DNA from: Candidatus Nanogingivalaceae bacterium
Lineage (GTDB): Bacteria > Patescibacteriota > Saccharimonadia > Saccharimonadales > Saccharimonadaceae
NCBI GenBank assembly: GCA_015257795.3
Contig: CP072208.2
Coordinates: forward strand, 60,001 to 92,000
Length of the DNA: 32,000 nucleotides
Reading direction: 5' to 3'
Made by a program: the position numbers and the translations under genes. Of the stretch, positions 3,263 to 28,037 are shown piece by piece. The notes beneath the pieces are model-generated. The model made no database searches, was not told the DNA's origin, and was given only the letters and a program-made list of their open reading frames with translations. How positions within the stretch are numbered: position 1 is the first letter of the stretch; each line of letters starts with the position of its first letter.

Positions 3263-5518
3263 ATGGCTAAAAAACAAGTGAAAAAAAGCAAAGCTAAAAA
3301 AGCCCCGGCTCCAAAACAAAGTGTTTTACCGGCTGGATTTTGGCCGCAAGTTAGTGCGGTTCTTTTGATTGCGTTTTCATTTTTCTTAATTTTGAGCTGG
3401 TTTGGTGCTGGTGGTGCGGCGCTTACAGCAATTCACCAAGGATTTCTTGGATTCATGGGCTGGGCTGCATTTTTTGTGCCGGCAGTTTTAATCTTTATTT
3501 CGGTTGAAATTTTTCGTGATGAACAAAACCGTTTTCCAGGCTTAAACACTTTTGGTCTTGTACTTATTCTATTCTGGCTTAGTGGTTTCTTTGGGTTATT
3601 TAGAGCTTCTGCTGGAATGCATTATGGCGGTTGGAGCGGTGAAATTTCGAATAAAATTATGTTAGCAATGGTGAACTCTGTTGTTGCGGCGATTATTTAT
3701 TTACTTTTGATTTCAATTACATTGCTTTCGATTTTGCGAGTTTCGCCAATAGTTGTGATTAAGAAAATTAGTGAGATGCTCAAGACTAGCGATTTTGCTA
3801 ATGAATCTAAGAACGCTAAAGTCTTCGAGAAAGCCAAAGAAGCAATGCTTTCGAAAAAGGCTGAAGATTTGAATAATACCGAAAAGCCAGAAATTAAACT
3901 AAACGCAGGTGTTGCGGTTTTGGATAAAAAATCACGTGAAAAGGCTGAACAAAAAGAGAAGAAAGGTTTGATGCGAATTTCGAAAGCCAAGGAAACTTCT
4001 GCTGAAGATTCGAAAAAAGCTGAAAACCACGCGCCAATTTTTGATGATTCAAAATGGCAAGCGCCAGGTTTCGATTTGTTGGAGCATTCACAAAACCCGG
4101 CCGATGCTGGTGATGTTGAACAAAATGCACGAACAATTAAAGATACGCTTAGCGAATTTAATATTGATGTTGAAATGGAAGCCGCAAATATTGGTCCACG
4201 AGTAACACAATATACTTTAGTTCCGCAAAGTGGTGTAAAGCTAAGCCGAATCGAAAATCTTAGCGATAATATTGCGCTAAATTTAGCCGCAGAATCAATT
4301 CGTGTTGAAGCACCGATTCCGGGAAAACGAGCAGTTGGTGTGGAGATTCCAAATTTAAAATCTGCTGATGTTCGACTTTTTGGAGTTTTAGATTCTAAGG
4401 AATGGCGAAACGCTCGAGATCCATTAACTTTTGCAATCGGTAAAGATATCGCTGGTCACCCAGTTGTGGGTAATCTTTCGAAAATGCCGCATCTTTTGAT
4501 TGCTGGTCAAACAGGCTCTGGTAAGTCTGTTATGATGAACGCATTGCTTACAAGCTTGCTTTATCGACATTCACCAAGTGAGTTAAAGCTAATCATGGTT
4601 GATCCGAAAGTTGTGGAAATGACAGCTTACGAGGATATTCCGCATCTGTTAACGCCAATTATTAATGATTCCGAAAAAGCGCTTTCGGCTCTTAAGTGGG
4701 CGGTTAACGAAATGGAACGTCGTTATCGTGTTCTGGCTGACGAGAAAATCAAAGAAATTAAAAGCTATAACAAGCATGTGATTTCTAAAAATGAGAAGAT
4801 TAAAAAATCAACACCGGAGGGTGAAGAGCCTAAATTGCTTGAGCCACTACCCTATATCGTAATTGTTGTTGATGAGCTTGCCGACTTGATGATGGCGGCA
4901 TCAAAGGATGTTGAAGCTATGATTGTGCGAATTGCACAGAAGGCTCGTGCTGTTGGAATTCACCTTGTTCTGGCGACTCAAAAGCCGGTTGTTAGTGTTG
5001 TGACTGGTTTGATTAAAGGAAACGTTCCTAGCCGAATTGCGTTCAAAGTTGCAGCGAACGGTGATTCTAGAACAATTCTCGATCGCGGTGGTGCTGAAAA
5101 GCTTCTTGGAAATGGTGATATGCTGTTCTATATGAATGGTGCGCCAAACTTAAAGCGTGTTCAGGGTGCTTGGGTTACGGACGAAGAAGTCTTGCGAGTT
5201 ACAAACTTTATTCGTTCGCAAGGACCACCTCAATATAATGATGAGGTTATATCGCAGCAAGTTCAACCTGGAGCTATGGGTGGAGTAGTGATGAGTGGCG
5301 GAAGTTCTTCTACGGATGAAACTTTTGAAACAGCTGTTAAGCTTGTCATTGAGGCAAGGAAGGCTTCAACAAGCTATTTGCAACGACGCCTTGGAATCGG
5401 CTATGGTCGTGCTGCGAAATTAATTGACGAAATGGAGGATCGTGGAATTGTTGGTCCACCAAATGGCTCAAAGCCACGCCAAGTGCTTGTTTCTAGCTAT
5501 GAAGAAATCGGTGAATAA
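3263..5518 (+). CDS. ftsK: DNA translocase FtsK/SpoIIIE
   Basis: N-terminal multi-TM region and a charged linker. Walker A is LLIAGQTGSGKS and Walker B is IVIVVDELADLMM. A C-terminal gamma wHTH is present (YLQRRLGIGYGRAAKLIDEMEDRGIVGP). Confidence 0.95.
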   Translation: MAKKQVKKSKAKKAPAPKQSVLPAGFWPQVSAVLLIAFSFFLILSWFGAGGAALTAIHQGFLGFMGWAAFFVPAVLIFISVEIFRDEQNRFPGLNTFGLVLILFWLSGFFGLFRASAGMHYGGWSGEISNKIMLAMVNSVVAAIIYLLLISITLLSILRVSPIVVIKKISEMLKTSDFANESKNAKVFEKAKEAMLSKKAEDLNNTEKPEIKLNAGVAVLDKKSREKAEQKEKKGLMRISKAKETSAEDSKKAENHAPIFDDSKWQAPGFDLLEHSQNPADAGDVEQNARTIKDTLSEFNIDVEMEAANIGPRVTQYTLVPQSGVKLSRIENLSDNIALNLAAESIRVEAPIPGKRAVGVEIPNLKSADVRLFGVLDSKEWRNARDPLTFAIGKDIAGHPVVGNLSKMPHLLIAGQTGSGKSVMMNALLTSLLYRHSPSELKLIMVDPKVVEMTAYEDIPHLLTPIINDSEKALSALKWAVNEMERRYRVLADEKIKEIKSYNKHVISKNEKIKKSTPEGEEPKLLEPLPYIVIVVDELADLMMAASKDVEAMIVRIAQKARAVGIHLVLATQKPVVSVVTGLIKGNVPSRIAFKVAANGDSRTILDRGGAEKLLGNGDMLFYMNGAPNLKRVQGAWVTDEEVLRVTNFIRSQGPPQYNDEVISQQVQPGAMGGVVMSGGSSSTDETFETAVKLVIEARKASTSYLQRRLGIGYGRAAKLIDEMEDRGIVGPPNGSKPRQVLVSSYEEIGE

Positions 5519-21028: not shown

Positions 21029-21105
21029 GCCTCGGTAGCTCAATTGGATAGAGCAGTTCCGTCCTAAGGAAAAGGTTATAGGTTCGATTCCTATCCGGGG
21101 TACCA
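21029..21105 (+). tRNA. tRNA-Arg (anticodon CCU), CCA encoded
   Basis: Hand-folded cloverleaf: acceptor GCCTCGG/CCGGGGT, D arm GCTC..GAGC, anticodon loop GTCCTAA, T arm ATAGG-TTCGATT-CCTAT. One A:G mismatch closes the anticodon stem. Confidence 0.85.
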
Positions 21106-21117
21106 CTGATTTTATTT

Positions 21118-21633
21118 ATGAAAGAACAAATTTTTAAAGGTCAAAGAGAAGGTGAAGAATTTCTCTTTATGTTTCGAAAGCATATCATTGCGATGCGCAA
21201 GGGTTTTTACCTTTTTTTGGGCGTTTTTGCAATTTCTTGTTTGCCGACTTTTTTTATGTTAACTTCAGAAAATCTAATGAATGCGCTTTGGGTTGCTTGC
21301 GGCGGTTTTCTGGTTGGGCTTATGCTGTTTTTGTATCATTTTATGCTGTGGTATTATTCAATCTATATTGTTTCGAATCAGCGCATTCGTCAAATTACGC
21401 AAAAAGGATTTTTTGGGAGAAGAATGATGGATTTGCCGCTTTCGAAAATCCAAAGTGTTAATTTCGAAATTCCAGGATTTTTTGGCGATATTTTCCATTT
21501 TGGAACAATAAATATTTTTACAATCGTGGGAGATTTAGAGATTAAAAATGTTGAACACCCAGAAGATGTTTATAATAGACTTCAGGATGCGATTTCGAAA
21601 GTTGAAGTAGAGGAGGAAGATGAAGAATTTTAA
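21118..21633 (+). CDS. Membrane protein with a bacterial PH (bPH_2/YdbT-like) domain
   Basis: Two TM helices followed by YIVSNQRIRQITQKGFFGRRMMDLPLSKIQSVNFEIPGFFGDIFHFGTINI, which is typical of bPH. Confidence 0.7.
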   Translation: MKEQIFKGQREGEEFLFMFRKHIIAMRKGFYLFLGVFAISCLPTFFMLTSENLMNALWVACGGFLVGLMLFLYHFMLWYYSIYIVSNQRIRQITQKGFFGRRMMDLPLSKIQSVNFEIPGFFGDIFHFGTINIFTIVGDLEIKNVEHPEDVYNRLQDAISKVEVEEEDEEF

Positions 21634-22669
21634 AGAAAAGCGAAAGAGTTTGAAGAAAAAGATTTTGAAAAAGTCGAATACTCAAGAAACTCAAGTTGCA
21701 AAAATCACAAACACAACACTTGAAGAACAACGCAAGGAAATTTTAAACAAGGGTAAAAAATTTAAATATCCTGTCCAATATAGTAAAAATCGACTAGTTG
21801 GAAACGCTTTAATTATTGCTTTGGTGATTTTAATTACTGGTTCAGGGTTGTTGTGGTATCAACTATATCAAGCGCAAAATACTGGTGAATTTATTTATCG
21901 TTTTACAACTGTTATACCATTTCCAGTTGCAAATGTTGATGGCGAGAACGCACTTTATCGCGACTATTTAATGGAATATCGCGCAAATATGCAAATTGCG
22001 AATGCTAAAAAAGATGAAATTGAAAGTGCTAATAATGTAAAGGCTCTTTCAGTTTTAAATAAAAATAAGGCAATGAAAAATGCGATTGCGAATGCTTATG
22101 CTCAGAAAAAAGCCCGAGAAATGGGAATTTCTGTATCAGAGAAAGAGATTGACGAAGCTTTTGATGCTCAGAGAAAGACTCAAAATACCGAGCTTACTGA
22201 AAGTGCATTATATAAAATTGCCGCCGATAACTACGGTCTCTCACCAAGCGAATATCGTCGAATGTTTATTGAACTTCCACTTCTTCGCCGAAAAGTTACC
22301 GCAGAAATCGATAAAAATGCTGCTAAGACTAGAGATGAAGTTGTAAAATATTTGAACGATAACTCAAATGATTTCTCAAAGGCTGCTGAGCAATTTGGTG
22401 ATAAGATTGAGTATAATAAGCCTGGAAAAGTTCGAAAAACAAATATTGACGGCGGTCGTTCGAAGGTAGCTTCACAATTAAATGTTGGCGAAGTTTCGAA
22501 ACCATTCATCTCGAACGCTGGTGATGGCTACTATATCGTAAAACTTATCGAAAAAAGTGACAATGAGATTAGTTATGAATCGATAAAAATTAAGTTTACC
22601 GAGTTTAATTCACAGCTAGAAAAGCTTGAAAAAGAAGGTAAGGTTAAAAAATATATCAAGGTTGATTAG
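21620..22669 (+). CDS. Membrane-anchored peptidyl-prolyl isomerase (parvulin/PpiC type, PrsA/SurA-like)
   Basis: N-terminal TM helix and a helical chaperone-like region. The C-terminal motif GEVSKPFISNAGDGYYIVKLIEK is typical of rotamase domains. RBS is gaggagga. TAG stop. Confidence 0.65.
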   Translation: MKNFKEKRKSLKKKILKKSNTQETQVAKITNTTLEEQRKEILNKGKKFKYPVQYSKNRLVGNALIIALVILITGSGLLWYQLYQAQNTGEFIYRFTTVIPFPVANVDGENALYRDYLMEYRANMQIANAKKDEIESANNVKALSVLNKNKAMKNAIANAYAQKKAREMGISVSEKEIDEAFDAQRKTQNTELTESALYKIAADNYGLSPSEYRRMFIELPLLRRKVTAEIDKNAAKTRDEVVKYLNDNSNDFSKAAEQFGDKIEYNKPGKVRKTNIDGGRSKVASQLNVGEVSKPFISNAGDGYYIVKLIEKSDNEISYESIKIKFTEFNSQLEKLEKEGKVKKYIKVD

Positions 22670-22680
22670 TCTATAATAAA

Positions 22681-22710
22681 AAAGATACCCGTGAAAACAG
22701 GTATCTTTTA
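22681..22710 (+). terminator. Rho-independent terminator after the PPIase gene
   Basis: aaagatacc / ggtatcttt stem with a 10-nt loop and a T-rich tail. Confidence 0.7.
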
Positions 22711-22753
22711 AAATAAATAAAAAACGCTAGAAAGCGATTTTTAAAGTCTAAAT

Positions 22754-22831
22754 TGGCGCGCCCGACCGGATTCGAACCGGCGATCTCCTCCGTGACAGGG
22801 AGGCGTACTAGGCCAGCTATACCACGAGCGC
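22754..22831 (-). tRNA. tRNA-Asp (anticodon GUC), CCA encoded
   Basis: The reverse complement folds as GCGCTCG...CCTCC-CTGTCAC-GGAGG...GCCGG-TTCGAAT-CCGGT-CGGGCGC-G-CCA. Confidence 0.9.
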
Positions 22832-22909
22832 ATCGCTAGACTAATACAATTCTATCAGACTTCGAGAATAAAATCAAGGCCTTTTTTAGTTTATTTTTCA
22901 AAAAGTTTG

Positions 22910-22918
22910 TGCTATAAT
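22910..22918 (+). promoter_or_regulatory. Extended -10 (TGcTATAAT) for tRNA-Thr
   Basis: tgctataat at 22910-22918, ending 11 nt before the mature 5' end of the tRNA. Confidence 0.5.
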
Positions 22919-22929
22919 ATTAAGCATAT

Positions 22930-23005
22930 GCCGATGTAGCTCAGTTGGTAGAGCAACGCACTCGTAAAGCGTAGGTCAGCAGTTCAATCCTGCTCATCGG
23001 CTCCA
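22930..23005 (+). tRNA. tRNA-Thr (anticodon CGU), CCA encoded
   Basis: Acceptor GCCGATG/CATCGGC, D arm GCTC-AGTTGGTA-GAGC, anticodon loop CTCGTAA, T arm AGCAG-TTCAATC-CTGCT. Confidence 0.9.
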
Positions 23006-23392: not shown

Positions 23393-25086
23393 TGAAGAAA
23401 CAAAAGATTGACATTGAAATCCCACTAGGTAAGCGAACCCTGAAGTATCGCTTTTTTGAGATTTTGCCAGCATTTTTAAGTTTTGGTGCAATTATTTTAA
23501 TGTTTATACTTTCGTTCTTTTCACCTTTTTTGGCCTCGGTCTACCTTCTAACAATTATTACAACTCTTCTAGTTAAAGCAATCGGAATTGCTTACCGAAT
23601 GATAACGGGACATATACAAATTGAAAAGGCTCAAAAGGTTAATTGGAATAAGCGACTGTCTGAACTTAAAAATCCAAAAAAAGCGCTTGAGAAGATAAAA
23701 AATCAGGAAAAAAGTAAGGAATATGATTTTAAACAGCATATTCAAAATTTGCATGATATTATAGATAGACCAGAGGCTTTTCCGGATCCATTCTCGGTAA
23801 AAAATGCTGTGATTATAGCTGCTTATAATGAACCTTACGAAGTAATTCAACCGACAATTAAATCTGTTTTGGCCTCAAATTATGACGCTAAAAATCTTTT
23901 AATTTTCCTGGCTTATGAGGAACGTGGCGGTGAAGGCATTGAAAAAACTGCAATTCGGCTCAAAAAAGAGTTTTCGAAAAGTTTTGGTGCTTTCGAAATT
24001 GTAAAACATCCAAAAAACTTACCGAATGAGGTTGTTGGGAAAGGTGGAAATATCACTTTTGCTGGCCGAGCATTGCAAAAATATTGCGAAGATAATAAAA
24101 TTCCTTTCGAGAGCGTACTGGTTACAACTTTAGATAGCGACAATAAACCACATAAAGAATATTTTGCTGCTGCAACCTATGAATTTGTTGTCCATGAAGA
24201 TCGTAAAAAGTTATCATATCAGCCGGTTTCGTTGTTTTTGAATAATATTTGGGATGTTCCAGCACCAATGCGCGTGGTTGCAACTGGTAATTCATTCTGG
24301 AATATCGTCTCGACAATGCGGCCGCACCTTTTACGAAATTTTGCCTCACACTCTCAACCTCTAGATGCGTTGGTTGAAATGGATTTTTGGTCAACTCGCA
24401 CAATTGTTGAGGACGGACATCAATTTTGGCGCAGTTATTTCCATTTTGGTGGCGATTATTACGTTGTGCCAATTCGTGTGCCAATCTATCAAGATGCGGT
24501 TTTAAGTGAAACTTTACCAAAAACACTAAAAGCCCAATTTATCCAGCTTCGTCGTTGGATGTATGGTGCGAGCGATATTCCTTACGTTGCAAATTTGTAT
24601 TTTTCGAAAAATCGAAACGTTCCACTTATTGATGGGCTAATGAAATTGATTCGTTTGATTGATGGCCACGTTACGGCTGTATTCCAATCACCAATGGCTG
24701 CCTTTGGTGGTTGGGTTCCGTTGATTGTTTATGCGGCATCATCTCGTAGCGTGATCGTTCATCAATTGCCGAACGTTATTAGTACGCTTCAGCAAATTGC
24801 AACAATTGGTATTTTTATCACAATTTTGATTAGTTTAAAGATGTTGCCGCCACGTCCAGAACGCTATAAGAAACGTCGTTCTTTCTGGATGGTTGCACAG
24901 TGGGTTTATATGCCTGTAACTTCAATCTGTTATAATGCTGCAGCAGCGGCGTATTCACAAACTCGATTGGCTCTTGGCAAATATCTCGATAAATTCGACG
25001 TTACCGAGAAAGGCCGAATTGAAGATGTTGAACGCGCTAAAGCAGAAAAAGCTAAAAAGCGAGCATTGAAAAAGCAAAAAAAATAA
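23392..25086 (+). CDS. Processive family-2 glycosyltransferase (cellulose/chitin/PNAG-synthase-like)
   Basis: N- and C-terminal TM bundles flank a GT-A domain. Motifs seen: IIAAYNEP, TLDSDNKP, VEDGHQFWR and QLRRW (the QxxRW processivity motif). Confidence 0.8.
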   Translation: MKKQKIDIEIPLGKRTLKYRFFEILPAFLSFGAIILMFILSFFSPFLASVYLLTIITTLLVKAIGIAYRMITGHIQIEKAQKVNWNKRLSELKNPKKALEKIKNQEKSKEYDFKQHIQNLHDIIDRPEAFPDPFSVKNAVIIAAYNEPYEVIQPTIKSVLASNYDAKNLLIFLAYEERGGEGIEKTAIRLKKEFSKSFGAFEIVKHPKNLPNEVVGKGGNITFAGRALQKYCEDNKIPFESVLVTTLDSDNKPHKEYFAAATYEFVVHEDRKKLSYQPVSLFLNNIWDVPAPMRVVATGNSFWNIVSTMRPHLLRNFASHSQPLDALVEMDFWSTRTIVEDGHQFWRSYFHFGGDYYVVPIRVPIYQDAVLSETLPKTLKAQFIQLRRWMYGASDIPYVANLYFSKNRNVPLIDGLMKLIRLIDGHVTAVFQSPMAAFGGWVPLIVYAASSRSVIVHQLPNVISTLQQIATIGIFITILISLKMLPPRPERYKKRRSFWMVAQWVYMPVTSICYNAAAAAYSQTRLALGKYLDKFDVTEKGRIEDVERAKAEKAKKRALKKQKK

Positions 25087-25113
25087 GCACTCTGAAAGGA
25101 GTGTTTTATTTTT
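25086..25113 (+). terminator. Rho-independent terminator after the GT2 gene
   Basis: agcactc-tgaaag-gagtgtt stem (one G:U pair) followed by ttattttt. Confidence 0.65.
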
Positions 25114-25340: not shown

Positions 25341-25600
25341 TAACGCTTTTTGTGAAAAAGTTCAAGTATAACCATAAAGATGCTAATTTTCAAAGATTAA
25401 AATTTTGTTCGCTTTTGCTAAGAAACGTATTTTTATAACTAAAACATTTCACGCGAAAGTCAAATAAGATAAGGCGAACAAACTTAAAGTAAATATATCA
25501 TCAGATAAATAAAAATTTTCAAAAGCCAAAAACTATCTTGTGGAAAAGATTTTAGAAAATGTGCAAAACTAAAAAAACAATATAACGCTATATGTAGTGA

Positions 25601-25629
25601 TTGAAAAAAGAGGTGAAGTATGATAATAT
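25601..25629 (+). promoter_or_regulatory. Near-consensus promoter for the methyltransferase-nuclease operon
   Basis: TTGAAA (25601-25606), a 17-nt spacer, then TGaTAATAT (-10 at 25624-25629). The predicted TSS near 25636 gives a roughly 185-nt leader. Confidence 0.55.
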
Positions 25630-25691
25630 TGAGATGTCTATAAACAATTTAAAATGTATTTTCGGCGATTTTTTGTTGCTGGATTTCGTAA

Positions 25692-25712
25692 ATAGAGCTC
25701 CCAGTCTGGGAG
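25692..25712. repeat. Palindromic box 1: ATAGAG-CTCCCAG-T-CTGGGAG
   Basis: Perfect 7-bp inverted repeat with a 1-nt spacer (25698-25712). It shares ATAGA-n2-CCCAG(n)CTGGG with box 2, which lies 59 nt downstream. Confidence 0.6.
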
Positions 25713-25750
25713 AATTTGTGAAATTCAGTTTCTGAAAATACATCAAGTTT

Positions 25751-25776
25751 ATAGACGCCCCAGCTGGGCGCTCTAT
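25751..25776. repeat. Palindromic box 2: ATAGACG-CCCCAGCTGGG-CGCTCTAT
   Basis: Perfect 10-bp palindrome CCCAGCTGGG (25759-25768) nested inside an imperfect 26-bp palindrome (ATAGA...TCTAT). Confidence 0.6.
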
Positions 25777-25819
25777 TTATTTGATGTTTATTTTTTCGCC
25801 AAAAATAGAAAGGTTTTTC

Positions 25820-26764
25820 GTGGCGAATAAAAATCTCACACGAGCAAAAAAGGTCAAAAATGATGAATTTTACACACAATACGATGATATTGAAAAAGAG
25901 TGTGAAAGATATCGTGATCAATTTTATGGCAAAATAATTTACTGTAATTGTGATGACCCTGAAAGTAGTAATTTCTTCTTGTATTTTGCGAATAATTTCA
26001 AGTTTTTTGGCTTAAAAAAGCTTGTGACTACTCATTATGATGCTGAAAAGCCAACTTATAAGCTAGAATTAACAGAAGAAATGATCGAAGATGGCGCTGT
26101 AACTGCTGAATGTGCTAAGAAAACTCTACTTAAGGGTAACGGAGACTTTCGCAATGAAGAGAGTATTGAACTATTGAAAGAAGCCGATATAATCATAACT
26201 AATCCACCGTTTTCACTTTTTAGAGAATATATTGCTCAATTGATTGAATATGGAAAGCGATTTTTAATTATGGGAAATAATAACTCAATCACCTATAAAG
26301 AGATTTTTAAATTAATAAAAGAAAATAAAATTTGGCTTGGTTATGATGTTAATAAAACTATGGAGTTTGCTTTAAGTGATAGTTATGAGAAATGGAGTCG
26401 TATAGAAAATGGCGTAAAGTACGGAAAAGTTCCTGCAATATCTTGGTTTACGAATCTTGAAACAGATAAACGCCATCAAGAGTTGATTTTATATAAAAAA
26501 TATACCGCTGAAGAATTTCCAAAATATGATAATTATGACGCAATTGAAGTTTCGAAAGTTGTTGATATTCCGCAAGATTATGACGGTGTTATGGGAGTAC
26601 CGATTACTTTTCTTGATAAATTTAATCCAGATCAATTTGAATTGATAGGTTCTAATCGTTGGGTTGGTCAAGACGAAGATGGAGTGTATGGTAGAAGTTC
26701 GTATTTGAATGGAAAAGAAACTTTTAAAAGGCTATTCATAAAGAACAAGAAAGTGAGTAAATAA
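25820..26764 (+). CDS. N6-adenine DNA methyltransferase, M.EcoRI family
   Basis: Motifs KNDEFYTQYDDIEKE, IYCNCDDPESSNFF, catalytic IITNPPFSLFREY, KENKIWLG, PKYDNYDAIEV, GVMGVPITFLDKFNP and RLFIKNK. These match my recollection of M.EcoRI nearly block for block. I propose the start at GTG 25820 (VANKNLTRAKK, RBS gaaagg), by analogy with the M.EcoRI N-terminus. The ORF track starts at TTG 25781. Confidence 0.85.
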   Translation: MANKNLTRAKKVKNDEFYTQYDDIEKECERYRDQFYGKIIYCNCDDPESSNFFLYFANNFKFFGLKKLVTTHYDAEKPTYKLELTEEMIEDGAVTAECAKKTLLKGNGDFRNEESIELLKEADIIITNPPFSLFREYIAQLIEYGKRFLIMGNNNSITYKEIFKLIKENKIWLGYDVNKTMEFALSDSYEKWSRIENGVKYGKVPAISWFTNLETDKRHQELILYKKYTAEEFPKYDNYDAIEVSKVVDIPQDYDGVMGVPITFLDKFNPDQFELIGSNRWVGQDEDGVYGRSSYLNGKETFKRLFIKNKKVSK

Positions 26765-26766
26765 TT

Positions 26767-27861
26767 ATGAAAATTGAACTTCATAAAATAAAAATCAAAG
26801 ATATTTTTGAAGGCTATCGAAACAATAATGAAGAAGGTGTTGCTGGTTTTGGTGGAAAGTTAAATATTCGCCCAAAATATCAACGAGAGTTTGTTTATGA
26901 TGATCGCAAACGAAATGCTGTGATTGATACGGTTCGAAAGGGTTTTCCGCTAAATGTGATGTATTGGGTAAAAAATTCTGACGGAACTTTTGAAGTTTTA
27001 GATGGGCAACAACGAACAATTTCAATTTGTGAATATTTAAATAATAAATTCTCAATTTTGGATGAAGGAAATCGGCGGAAATTTTTTAATTTGACAGATT
27101 TTGAAAAAGAGCAGATTGAAAATTATGAGTTGATGATTTATTTTTGTGAAGGTAATGATAAAGAAAAACTTGACTGGTTTAAAATTATAAATATTGCAGG
27201 AGAAAAACTTACAGATCAGGAACTTCGTAATGCTGTTTATACTGGTGAATGGCTGACGCATGCAAAGAGTATTTTTAGTAAAAATAATTGTCCAGCTTGG
27301 AATTTAGCAAAAGATTATTTGAACGGTTCACCAATTCGGCAAGATTATCTTGAAGCTGCCCTCGATTGGATATCAAACGGTGAAATTGAAAAATATATGT
27401 CTGAAAATCAGAATAAGCAAAACGCAAACGAGCTTTGGTTATATTTTCAAAATGTTATTTCTTGGGTGAAAATGACATTTGTGAATTATCGCAAAGAAAT
27501 GAAAGGTGTTAATTGGGGCGAGCTCTATAATAAATTCAGTAGAGAAAATTTTGATACTACTAAAATTGAAAATCAAATTGTTGAATTATTAAAAGATGAT
27601 GAAGTTACTAAAAAATCTGGAATTTATAAATATATTTTAACGGGTGAAGAACGTTGGTTGAGTTTACGAGCTTTTACAGAAAATCAAAAAAGAGAAGTTT
27701 ATGAACAGCAAAAGGGAATTTGCCCAATTTGTCATGAGCACTACACAATTGAAGAAATGGAGGCTGATCATATTCAGCCATGGAGTAAAGGTGGAAAAAC
27801 GGTGGCCGAAAACTGCCAAATGCTTTGCAAAAAAGATAATCGCGAGAAGAGTGATAAGTAA
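26767..27861 (+). CDS. DUF262 (ParB-like NTPase, DGQQR) - HNH nuclease fusion protein
   Basis: N-terminal IRPKYQREFVY...VIDTVRKGFPLN...VLDGQQRT (DGQQR at 27001-27015). C-terminal McrA-type HNH: CPICHEHYTIEEMEADHIQPWSKGGKTVAENCQMLCKKDNREK (from 27721). The ATG lies 2 nt after the methyltransferase stop. Confidence 0.85.
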   Translation: MKIELHKIKIKDIFEGYRNNNEEGVAGFGGKLNIRPKYQREFVYDDRKRNAVIDTVRKGFPLNVMYWVKNSDGTFEVLDGQQRTISICEYLNNKFSILDEGNRRKFFNLTDFEKEQIENYELMIYFCEGNDKEKLDWFKIINIAGEKLTDQELRNAVYTGEWLTHAKSIFSKNNCPAWNLAKDYLNGSPIRQDYLEAALDWISNGEIEKYMSENQNKQNANELWLYFQNVISWVKMTFVNYRKEMKGVNWGELYNKFSRENFDTTKIENQIVELLKDDEVTKKSGIYKYILTGEERWLSLRAFTENQKREVYEQQKGICPICHEHYTIEEMEADHIQPWSKGGKTVAENCQMLCKKDNREKSDK

Positions 27862-27875
27862 TTTTTATAAAACTA

Positions 27876-27903
27876 AAATACCGCATGATAAGTGCGGTAT
27901 TTT
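27876..27903 (+). terminator. Terminator after the DUF262-HNH gene
   Basis: aaataccgca / tgcggtattt 10-bp stem with a 7-nt loop and a T-rich tail. Confidence 0.7.
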
Positions 27904-27925
27904 AAAGATGATTATAAAACAATAA

Positions 27926-27960: not shown

Positions 27961-28037
27961 TGGTGGGCGATAGAGGACTCGAACCTCTGACTTTCACAAC
28001 GTCAATGTGACGCTCTAGCCAACTGAGCTAATCGCCC
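27961..28037 (-). tRNA. tRNA-Val (anticodon GAC), CCA encoded
   Basis: The reverse complement folds as GGGCGAT-TA-GCTC-AGTTGGCTA-GAGC-G-TCACA-TTGACGT-TGTGA-AAGTC-AGAGG-TTCGAGT-CCTCT-ATCGCCC-A-CCA. Confidence 0.92.

Follow-up and report, generated by a model that had tools for sequence, protein, structure and literature searches.

An EcoRI-family methylase and a DUF262-HNH nuclease form a candidate methylation-blocked restriction-modification operon in an oral Saccharibacterium

Here we describe two adjoining genes in a stretch of 32,000 nucleotides (nt) from the genome of a Candidatus Nanogingivalaceae bacterium, an oral Saccharibacterium (assembly GCA_015257795.3, contig CP072208.2, positions 60,001 to 92,000). 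This whole stretch is called the window, and positions are counted from its first letter. A gene for an N6-adenine methyltransferase, below called the methylase, is followed on the same strand by a gene for a nuclease that combines a DUF262 domain with an HNH domain. We consider it probable, at roughly 80%, that the pair is a two-gene, methylation-blocked (Type II-like) restriction-modification (R-M) operon, a reading that comes from sequence comparison. What is in hand are the domain identities, the conserved catalytic motifs, an obligate linkage of methylase to nuclease, the co-evolution of the two and the match of the nuclease to a profile of Type II restriction enzymes.

Results

The gene pair

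A first-pass annotation, made by a model from the letters of the window, had reported both open reading frames and their domains. Both genes are found on the forward strand with the coordinates it gave, the methylase before the nuclease, and the domains are confirmed by Pfam (Table 1). It had also described the genes as coupled, and this holds: the stop codon TAA of the methylase ends at 26764 and the ATG of the nuclease begins at 26767, leaving a spacer of 2 nt, while among relatives an overlap is usual.

The program-made list of open reading frames starts the methylase at a TTG codon at 25781. The GTG at 25820 is the right start, because the sequence GAAAGG lies 6 nt upstream of it and because the block of ribosome-binding site and GTG is conserved in the orthologous loci L001 and L002. 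The 314-residue product of this start exactly matches a called protein on 106 public contigs, and the exact nuclease protein is present on 139 contigs. Identical nucleases among the GenBank proteins are annotated as Candidatus Nanogingivalaceae, and relatives in the cluster of at least 90% identity as Candidatus Saccharimonas.

Table 1. Features of the methylase-nuclease locus, with positions in the window (aa, amino acids; E, expect value)
Feature	Position	Strand	Remarks
Intrinsic-terminator-like hairpin	25085..25106	+	9-bp stem, then T-run; closes the 564-aa gene upstream; marks the left edge of the R-M transcription unit
Intergenic block	25440..25585		Identical to orthologous locus L002; adjoining coding DNA only ~81% identical
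Best sigma-70-like promoter match	25601..25629	+	TTGAAA-17-TAATAT, TG-extended; 9/12; weak
Structured 5' leader	25690..25779	+	Inverted arms AAATAGAGCTCCCA ... TGGGCGCTCTATTT: long stem, then T-run, ~30 nt before the ribosome-binding site
Ribosome-binding site GAAAGG, methylase	25808..25813	+	Kept along with the GTG start in L001 and L002
Methyltransferase gene	25820..26764	+	314 aa, GTG start; EcoRI_methylase family, gamma-class N6-adenine, catalytic TNPPF motif; PF13651, PADLOC MTase_II
Restriction nuclease gene (candidate)	26767..27861	+	364 aa; PF03235 and PF01844, PADLOC REase_II PDLC03418
DUF262 / GmrSD_N (ParB/Srx-fold) domain	26824..27240	+	aa 20-158; PF03235 E 1.6e-19; Foldseek matches ParB, Noc, sulfiredoxin (Srx), BrxU
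Zinc-binding HNH domain	27721..27858	+	aa 319-364; PF01844 E 2.2e-11; aligns to Gme HNH 4h9d and McrA 6ghc
13-bp hairpin	27873..27905		Between the nuclease and the convergent tRNA-Val; scored on - strand; A-run/T-run symmetry
tRNA-Val(GAC)	27961..28037	-	Right neighbour, outside the R-M system

The two genes stay together across phyla

The linkage of the two genes was studied in 80 genomic loci with nuclease homologues of 65-91% identity. These loci come from Saccharibacteria and other lineages within the candidate phyla radiation, DPANN and Methanosarcinales archaea, Clostridia, Chloroflexota, Bacteroidota, Campylobacterota and Planctomycetota. An EcoRI-family methylase lies just upstream of the nuclease, on the same strand, in 77 of the 80 loci, and in all 77 where upstream DNA exists. 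The remaining three were considered as exceptions and rejected, as contig ends or insertions account for them: in one (L008) the contig ends 150 nt upstream of the nuclease, and in the others it ends after a RhuM gene (L030, 430-1464) or after AbiJ and RhuM genes (L037, 155-2266) that lie upstream of the nuclease. No intact nuclease lacking an upstream methylase gene was seen in the 80 loci wherever upstream DNA exists.

In 66 of the 76 loci where the distance is measurable, the two genes share 1, 4 or 11 nt or are at most 30 nt apart. The larger gaps that were examined hold inserted genes, AIPR in one case (L004, 3285-4967) and RhuM-Fic in another (L042, 2658-3662). Further, the best 25 plasmid matches to the nuclease all carry the methylase. 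The pair is kept down to about 40% nuclease identity, in Enterococcus faecium megaplasmids and a Flavobacterium phage, and it is also found on plasmids of the Arthrobacter group and of Gordonia and on 10 IMG/VR viral contigs. Macrococcoides canis (pMiCAN82a) and Gordonia KTR9 (pGKT1) are among its cultured carriers.

The pairwise divergences of methylase and nuclease are correlated, with a Mantel r of 0.68 that none of 2000 permutations reaches. In the representative library one protein of 688 residues (P0293) holds EcoRI_methylase, DUF262 and HNH in a single chain, being either a natural fusion of the two proteins or a gene-calling read-through. Where the system decays, the methylase is kept and the nuclease is lost (L087) or carries an internal stop (L055), which is the usual R-M pattern. 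The co-occurrence of the two families, proposed in the first-pass annotation as a test, is therefore strongly positive, given the 77 of 77 loci and the co-phylogeny.

Where both genes are present (73 loci), conservation is stronger in the nuclease than in its methylase: the median identity is 69% against 58%, and the order is the same in 98.6% of the locus pairs. This is the reverse of the usual Type II pattern. The constraint on the nuclease is such that 65-70% identity is retained between archaea and bacteria.

A few further observations concern the pair in other genomes. The operon is an apparent insertion point for defence-type genes (AIPR, AbiJ, RhuM). On an E. hirae plasmid (L087, NZ_CP088184.1, 2486-5556) the oxazolidinone and phenicol resistance gene optrA stands right after the methylase, at the place of the nuclease; on a related E. 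dispar plasmid (NZ_CP116586.1) about 2.6 kb separate the methylase (76-978) from the nuclease (3593-4690). In two Gracilibacteria loci (L056, L067) both genes appear fragmented under translation table 11, a pattern that fits a sense reading of UGA in this lineage better than it fits pseudogenes. On a Pseudarthrobacter plasmid (L090, 5238-5459) a small helix-turn-helix regulator gene lies 3' of the nuclease and might encode a controller protein; it has no counterpart in the window.

The methylase is a close relative of M.EcoRI

In a Pfam search the methylase matches EcoRI_methylase (PF13651) over profile positions 1-344 of 345, with E 1.3e-116 and 390 bits against a cut-off of 26.4. The PADLOC profile MTase_II (PDLC03297) is matched with E 6.5e-113. 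The segment TNPPFSLFREY, which contains the catalytic NPPF motif, is present and conserved.

As reference we used a genuine M.EcoRI, whose gene adjoins 'type-2 restriction enzyme EcoRI' on an E. coli plasmid; the window methylase is 49.6% identical to it. A number of blocks shared with M.EcoRI had been listed in the first-pass annotation (KxDEFYTQY, CNCDDP..SNFF, TNPPFSLFREY, KENKIWLG, YDNYDAI, GVMGVPITFL and IKNK), and all of them are in the genuine protein. With this identity and the full-length PF13651 match, the proposed close relationship to M.EcoRI stands. Among the methylases linked to the nuclease, 95 alignment columns are at least 90% conserved, and M.EcoRI matches 87 of these; its differences are located in segments that also vary among the nuclease-linked methylases. 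M.EcoRI is 50-57% identical to them, about as close as they are to one another.

In a neighbour-joining tree, midpoint-rooted and without support values, a separate clade contains those methylases that are linked to EcoRI-type nucleases. The genes of EcoRI-family restriction endonucleases adjoin other members of the methylase family. Compared with the EcoRI system, the methylase here is a full-length homologue of M.EcoRI and both are two-gene operons of Type II style. However, the nuclease here is unrelated to R.EcoRI, a PD-(D/E)XK enzyme, and the gene order is nuclease then methylase in EcoRI-type plasmids but methylase then nuclease here. No homology of the nuclease to R.EcoRI, RsrI or MunI appears among its Pfam and PADLOC matches, in agreement with the earlier view that the partner is not an EcoRI-like PD-(D/E)XK enzyme. 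MluCI was considered as a member of the nuclease family and rejected, since one review implies that it is EcoRI/MunI-like.

The site of the methylase is likely to have an AATT core, as in GAATTC or a similar sequence. Such a site is indicated by the closeness to M.EcoRI together with the exclusive pairing of the two families, and the fact that the nuclease family is paired only with the EcoRI_methylase family argues for one conserved target. Other AATT-core specificities, such as RAATTY, exist in the EcoRI_methylase family. As to GAATTC itself, the overall identity and the shared conserved columns speak for the same specificity, yet the methylases linked to EcoRI nucleases separate in the unsupported tree.

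The nuclease joins a DUF262 domain to a zinc-HNH domain

In 31 diverse homologues the DUF262 motifs QR (Q39 R40), DGQQR (79-83) and FxxxN (F138 to N142) are invariant. These motifs were defined for GmrS (PMC4619093), with DUF262 motif definitions also from PMC8565348. The same homologues share the HNH and zinc residues C319, C322, D334-H335, N349, C350, C354 and N358 without exception, including the four zinc cysteines. The C-terminus also matches HNH_5 (PF14279), and no Pfam match to DUF1524 (PF07510) is found in the nuclease. Conservation spans the whole protein, including a helical region (160-300) that is available for DNA reading.

The AlphaFold model of the nuclease has a mean predicted local distance difference test (pLDDT) of 74, with values above 90 in the HNH part. 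Foldseek connects the N-domain of this model with the proteins listed in Table 1 and the C-domain with Gme-HNH, McrA and Cas9-HNH. Sequence and profile searches of the PDB return no solved structure for either full-length protein; the HNH region aligns to the Gme HNH nickase and McrA.

In general the architecture resembles that of GmrSD, BrxU and SspE, which likewise have an N-terminal DUF262 domain with QR, DGQQR and FxxxN and a C-terminal His-Me-finger nuclease. However, the nuclease domain here is a classical zinc-HNH (PF01844) and not the DUF1524 of the GmrSD family, and the chain has 364 residues against the 580 of BrxU. A further difference to all three is that the gene here is obligately coupled to a protective methylase, which would imply the opposite polarity, with modification blocking cleavage. 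BrxU depends on the DGQQR residues Q101 and R102 both to hydrolyse nucleotides and to cleave DNA; DGQQR mutants bind nucleoside triphosphate (NTP) but neither hydrolyse it nor cut DNA, and nucleotide binding turns the dimer into monomers (PMC8565348).

The nuclease can also be compared with the HNH Type II enzymes KpnI, Hpy99I, PacI and SphI (PMC4081073). It shares with them the beta-beta-alpha-metal/HNH site, the Cys4 zinc motif and a cognate methylase, but as described there these enzymes have no ParB/DUF262 NTPase-like domain. The closest statement found in the literature is that DUF262 frequently occurs fused with a nuclease, classical HNH among them (PMC3632139). The combination of a methylase with a DUF262-HNH protein had been called paradoxical in the first-pass annotation; this does not hold, as such fusions have been noted before and thousands of such genes follow EcoRI-family methylases.

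The family is catalogued as a Type II restriction enzyme

The PADLOC profile PDLC03418 of the REase_II group ('Type II restriction enzyme') matches the nuclease from residue 1 to 364 over profile positions 1-372 of 372, with E 9.7e-140. As for likeness to PDLC03418 and PDLC03297, the end-to-end match means that the catalogued protein family is the same as that of the nuclease here. Profiles of this kind presumably derive from REBASE sequences. Because PDLC03418 and MTase_II both match, standard defence annotation would call the pair RM type II. The sole other REase_II match to the nuclease is PDLC03566, to the HNH part alone (E 1.3e-4). The DUF262 domain also matches the PADLOC profiles NsnA and PD-T4-2_A (E 2e-27 and 3e-13, residues about 30-210), but there the match is limited to the N-terminal domain and the profiles belong to other, non-R-M candidate systems.

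In public annotations, thousands of homologues are named 'DUF262 domain-containing', 'HNH endonuclease family', 'GmrSD domain-containing' or 'McrA'. A homologue search from the copy on an Arthrobacter-group plasmid, looking for a REBASE-style name such as ApoI, gave generic names only. A full-text literature search found nothing on an EcoRI-type methylase paired with DUF262-HNH. The nuclease family is catalogued, and as far as we have found its characterisation is absent from the literature searched. The earlier proposal that the module is undescribed is not supported: the family is already in PADLOC as a Type II restriction enzyme, at full length, although no enzyme name or paper was recovered. 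A refuting condition set in the first-pass annotation, that the pair be an already characterised and named system, thus applies in part. As annotation, this is an ordinary and very widespread R-M pair that tools of the PADLOC type already call.

Setting and expression signals

In the Saccharibacteria loci L001 and L002 the pair takes up the position that it has in the window and its neighbours are the same genes, and the flanking DNA is 67-81% identical to that of the window. The first-pass annotation had regarded recent acquisition as a fitting explanation. This is contradicted by the shared position and neighbours in the two related genomes: because synteny is kept despite the diverged flanks, the pair is, judged by this comparison, a stable resident and not a recent arrival.

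The GC content of the pair is 31.5%, against 36.4 +/- 2.3% in equal-sized windows. This is about two standard deviations lower and among the lowest 3.3%, a modest effect. A low-GC islet with its own promoter, leader and terminator had been described before; the lower GC content, the hairpins on both sides and the structured leader are indeed found, while for the promoter there is only a weak consensus match. Sites of that quality occur 21 times in the region, where 12.8 are expected by chance.

The folding energy of the methylase leader (25636-25822) is -58.5 kcal/mol, with a z of -6.0 compared with shuffled sequences. The leader arms AAATAGRGCGCC and GGYGYCCTATTT pair in the window and in both L001 and L002, and nine pairs have changed on both sides in a compensatory manner. 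A possible role of this stem is that of an attenuator or terminator controlling R-M expression. The conserved block upstream of it (25440-25585) was considered as a non-coding RNA and rejected, as Rfam has no match to it and neither strand folds into more RNA structure than expected; it is possibly a promoter or operator region. The hairpin behind the nuclease is likely to be a bidirectional terminator. The surroundings are rich in transfer RNA (tRNA) genes: Arg-CCT, Asp-GTC and Thr-CGT (21029-23005) are located 3-5 kb upstream of the pair, and tRNA-Val just downstream.

Discussion

In the favoured explanation, a methylation-blocked R-M operon, the methylase would mark the host DNA at a short site, most likely an AATT-core site such as GAATTC or one close to it. 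The nuclease would be translated right behind it, so that the methylase is made first. Cleavage would be the task of the C-terminal zinc-HNH domain, joined through the helical middle to the N-terminal ParB/Srx-fold DUF262 domain with its intact motifs for nucleotide binding and hydrolysis. Incoming unmethylated DNA would then be cut and methylated host DNA spared. Binding or hydrolysis of NTP in the DUF262 domain may gate the cleavage, which is plausible by analogy with BrxU. The block by methylation and the recognition sequence are both inferred from the gene pair and its homologues. Among the readings listed in the first-pass annotation, the one with a methylation-blocked system of ParB-like and HNH domains fits our results, while the other two, a Type IV enzyme co-opted together with a methylase and two independent genes, are unlikely given the obligate linkage.

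Several results weigh against a methylation-blocked operon or against the details proposed for it. The biochemically characterised DUF262 nucleases are modification-dependent or modification-sensing, that is, of the opposite polarity (PMC12707154, PMC8565348). In four loci (L012, L040, L048, L065) a split or degenerate methylase reading frame stands beside an intact nuclease; these splits may be assembly errors. Neither is a target visible in the host DNA. For the window and the 80 host loci, Markov-corrected ratios of observed to expected counts (O/E) were calculated for every palindrome of 4 and 6 bp, and they give no usable signal: AATT has an O/E of 1.0, and GAATTC one of 0.72, which is rank 31 of 64. 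The window contains 12 GAATTC sites, with 16.8 +/- 4.5 expected, so there is no depletion and no sign of avoidance; the count of 12 and the lack of depletion had been reported before, there with about 10 sites expected. Further, the nuclease model falls below a pLDDT of 50 at residues 38-62 and 142-159, around the motif regions of the N-domain. Finally, PDLC03418 comes in PADLOC with neither an enzyme name nor a recognition site nor a literature reference.

The palindrome counts contain one other observation. The most depleted 4-bp palindrome of the window is CATG, found 27 times with 58.9 expected (O/E 0.46) and generally depleted; this might be the mark of another R-M system elsewhere in the genome.

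The precedent of the characterised DUF262 enzymes, all of them modification-dependent or modification-sensing, favours an explanation in which the two genes are independent: the DUF262-HNH protein would be an ordinary Type IV enzyme like GmrSD, directed against modified phage DNA, and the methylase an unrelated orphan or epigenetic enzyme in the same operon. The presence of BrxU among the fold matches points in the same direction, as does the annotation of relatives as 'GmrSD restriction endonuclease domain-containing' or 'McrA'. We regard this as very unlikely. The nuclease is linked to one methylase family in every informative locus, across bacteria, archaea, plasmids and phages, and a Type IV enzyme is excluded in this argument because obligate coupling to a methylase is incompatible with an enzyme that attacks the product of that methylase. 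An unrelated hitch-hiker is likewise improbable, since it would not co-evolve, overlap and fuse with its neighbour, whereas here we find overlapping stop and start codons, correlated divergence and a candidate fused protein. The nuclease domain, moreover, is a classical HNH and not DUF1524, and the best PADLOC match is to a Type II and not a Type IV enzyme. Even less probable is that the nuclease is a non-specific or structure-specific HNH nickase brought in or licensed by another route, where the methylase either puts a general self mark on the DNA or has nothing to do with cleavage. Many stand-alone HNH proteins are indeed frequent-cutting nickases that are tolerated without a methylase (PMC3592412), and such an enzyme would agree with the lack of detectable site avoidance in the window and the 80 loci. 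However, the nuclease family is paired with one methylase family only, and the known members of that family read AATT-core sites, which speaks for a conserved recognition sequence that both enzymes share. Conservation over the whole length of the nuclease also includes the helical region available for reading DNA.

An explanation that differs in purpose more than in mechanism is a selfish addiction or mobility cassette, in which cells that lost the methylase would be killed by the nuclease (post-segregational killing), or the nuclease would aid the spread of the pair, with phage defence secondary. Nuclease identities of 65-70% between archaeal and bacterial phyla imply frequent horizontal transfer; small plasmids, conjugative plasmids and phages commonly carry the pair, which often has toxin-antitoxin genes beside it; and the stronger conservation of the nuclease than of the methylase, in nearly all locus pairs, would also fit. 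But the molecular mechanism would be the same, with methylation-blocked cleavage still required. In the present genome the pair is chromosomal and syntenic with its relatives, which points to stable retention by vertical descent, as a useful defence gene would show, and in other genomes AIPR, AbiJ and RhuM have been inserted inside the operon, as in defence islands. We therefore consider this explanation unlikely.

Beyond the methylation-blocked operon itself, a wider proposal can be made, and we make it tentatively, with confidence clearly short of even. The pair may represent a globally distributed R-M family, never biochemically characterised, that uses GmrSD-type machinery, a ParB/Srx NTPase-like domain together with a His-Me nuclease, with reversed polarity: NTP-gated, blocked by N6-methyladenine, directed to an AATT-core site and thus a counterpart of EcoRI with an unrelated fold. 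If DUF262 does provide NTP gating in a methylation-blocked enzyme, the ParB/Srx-HNH scaffold would be one that can be wired for either polarity of modification sensing. Mechanistically the nuclease would then be a Type II enzyme of a new class, and it might share its site with EcoRI or ApoI as a non-homologous isoschizomer. Common human oral Saccharibacteria carry the pair, as do resistance plasmids of enterococci and of relatives of staphylococci, and in these organisms it is likely to be a barrier to genetic manipulation and gene flow.

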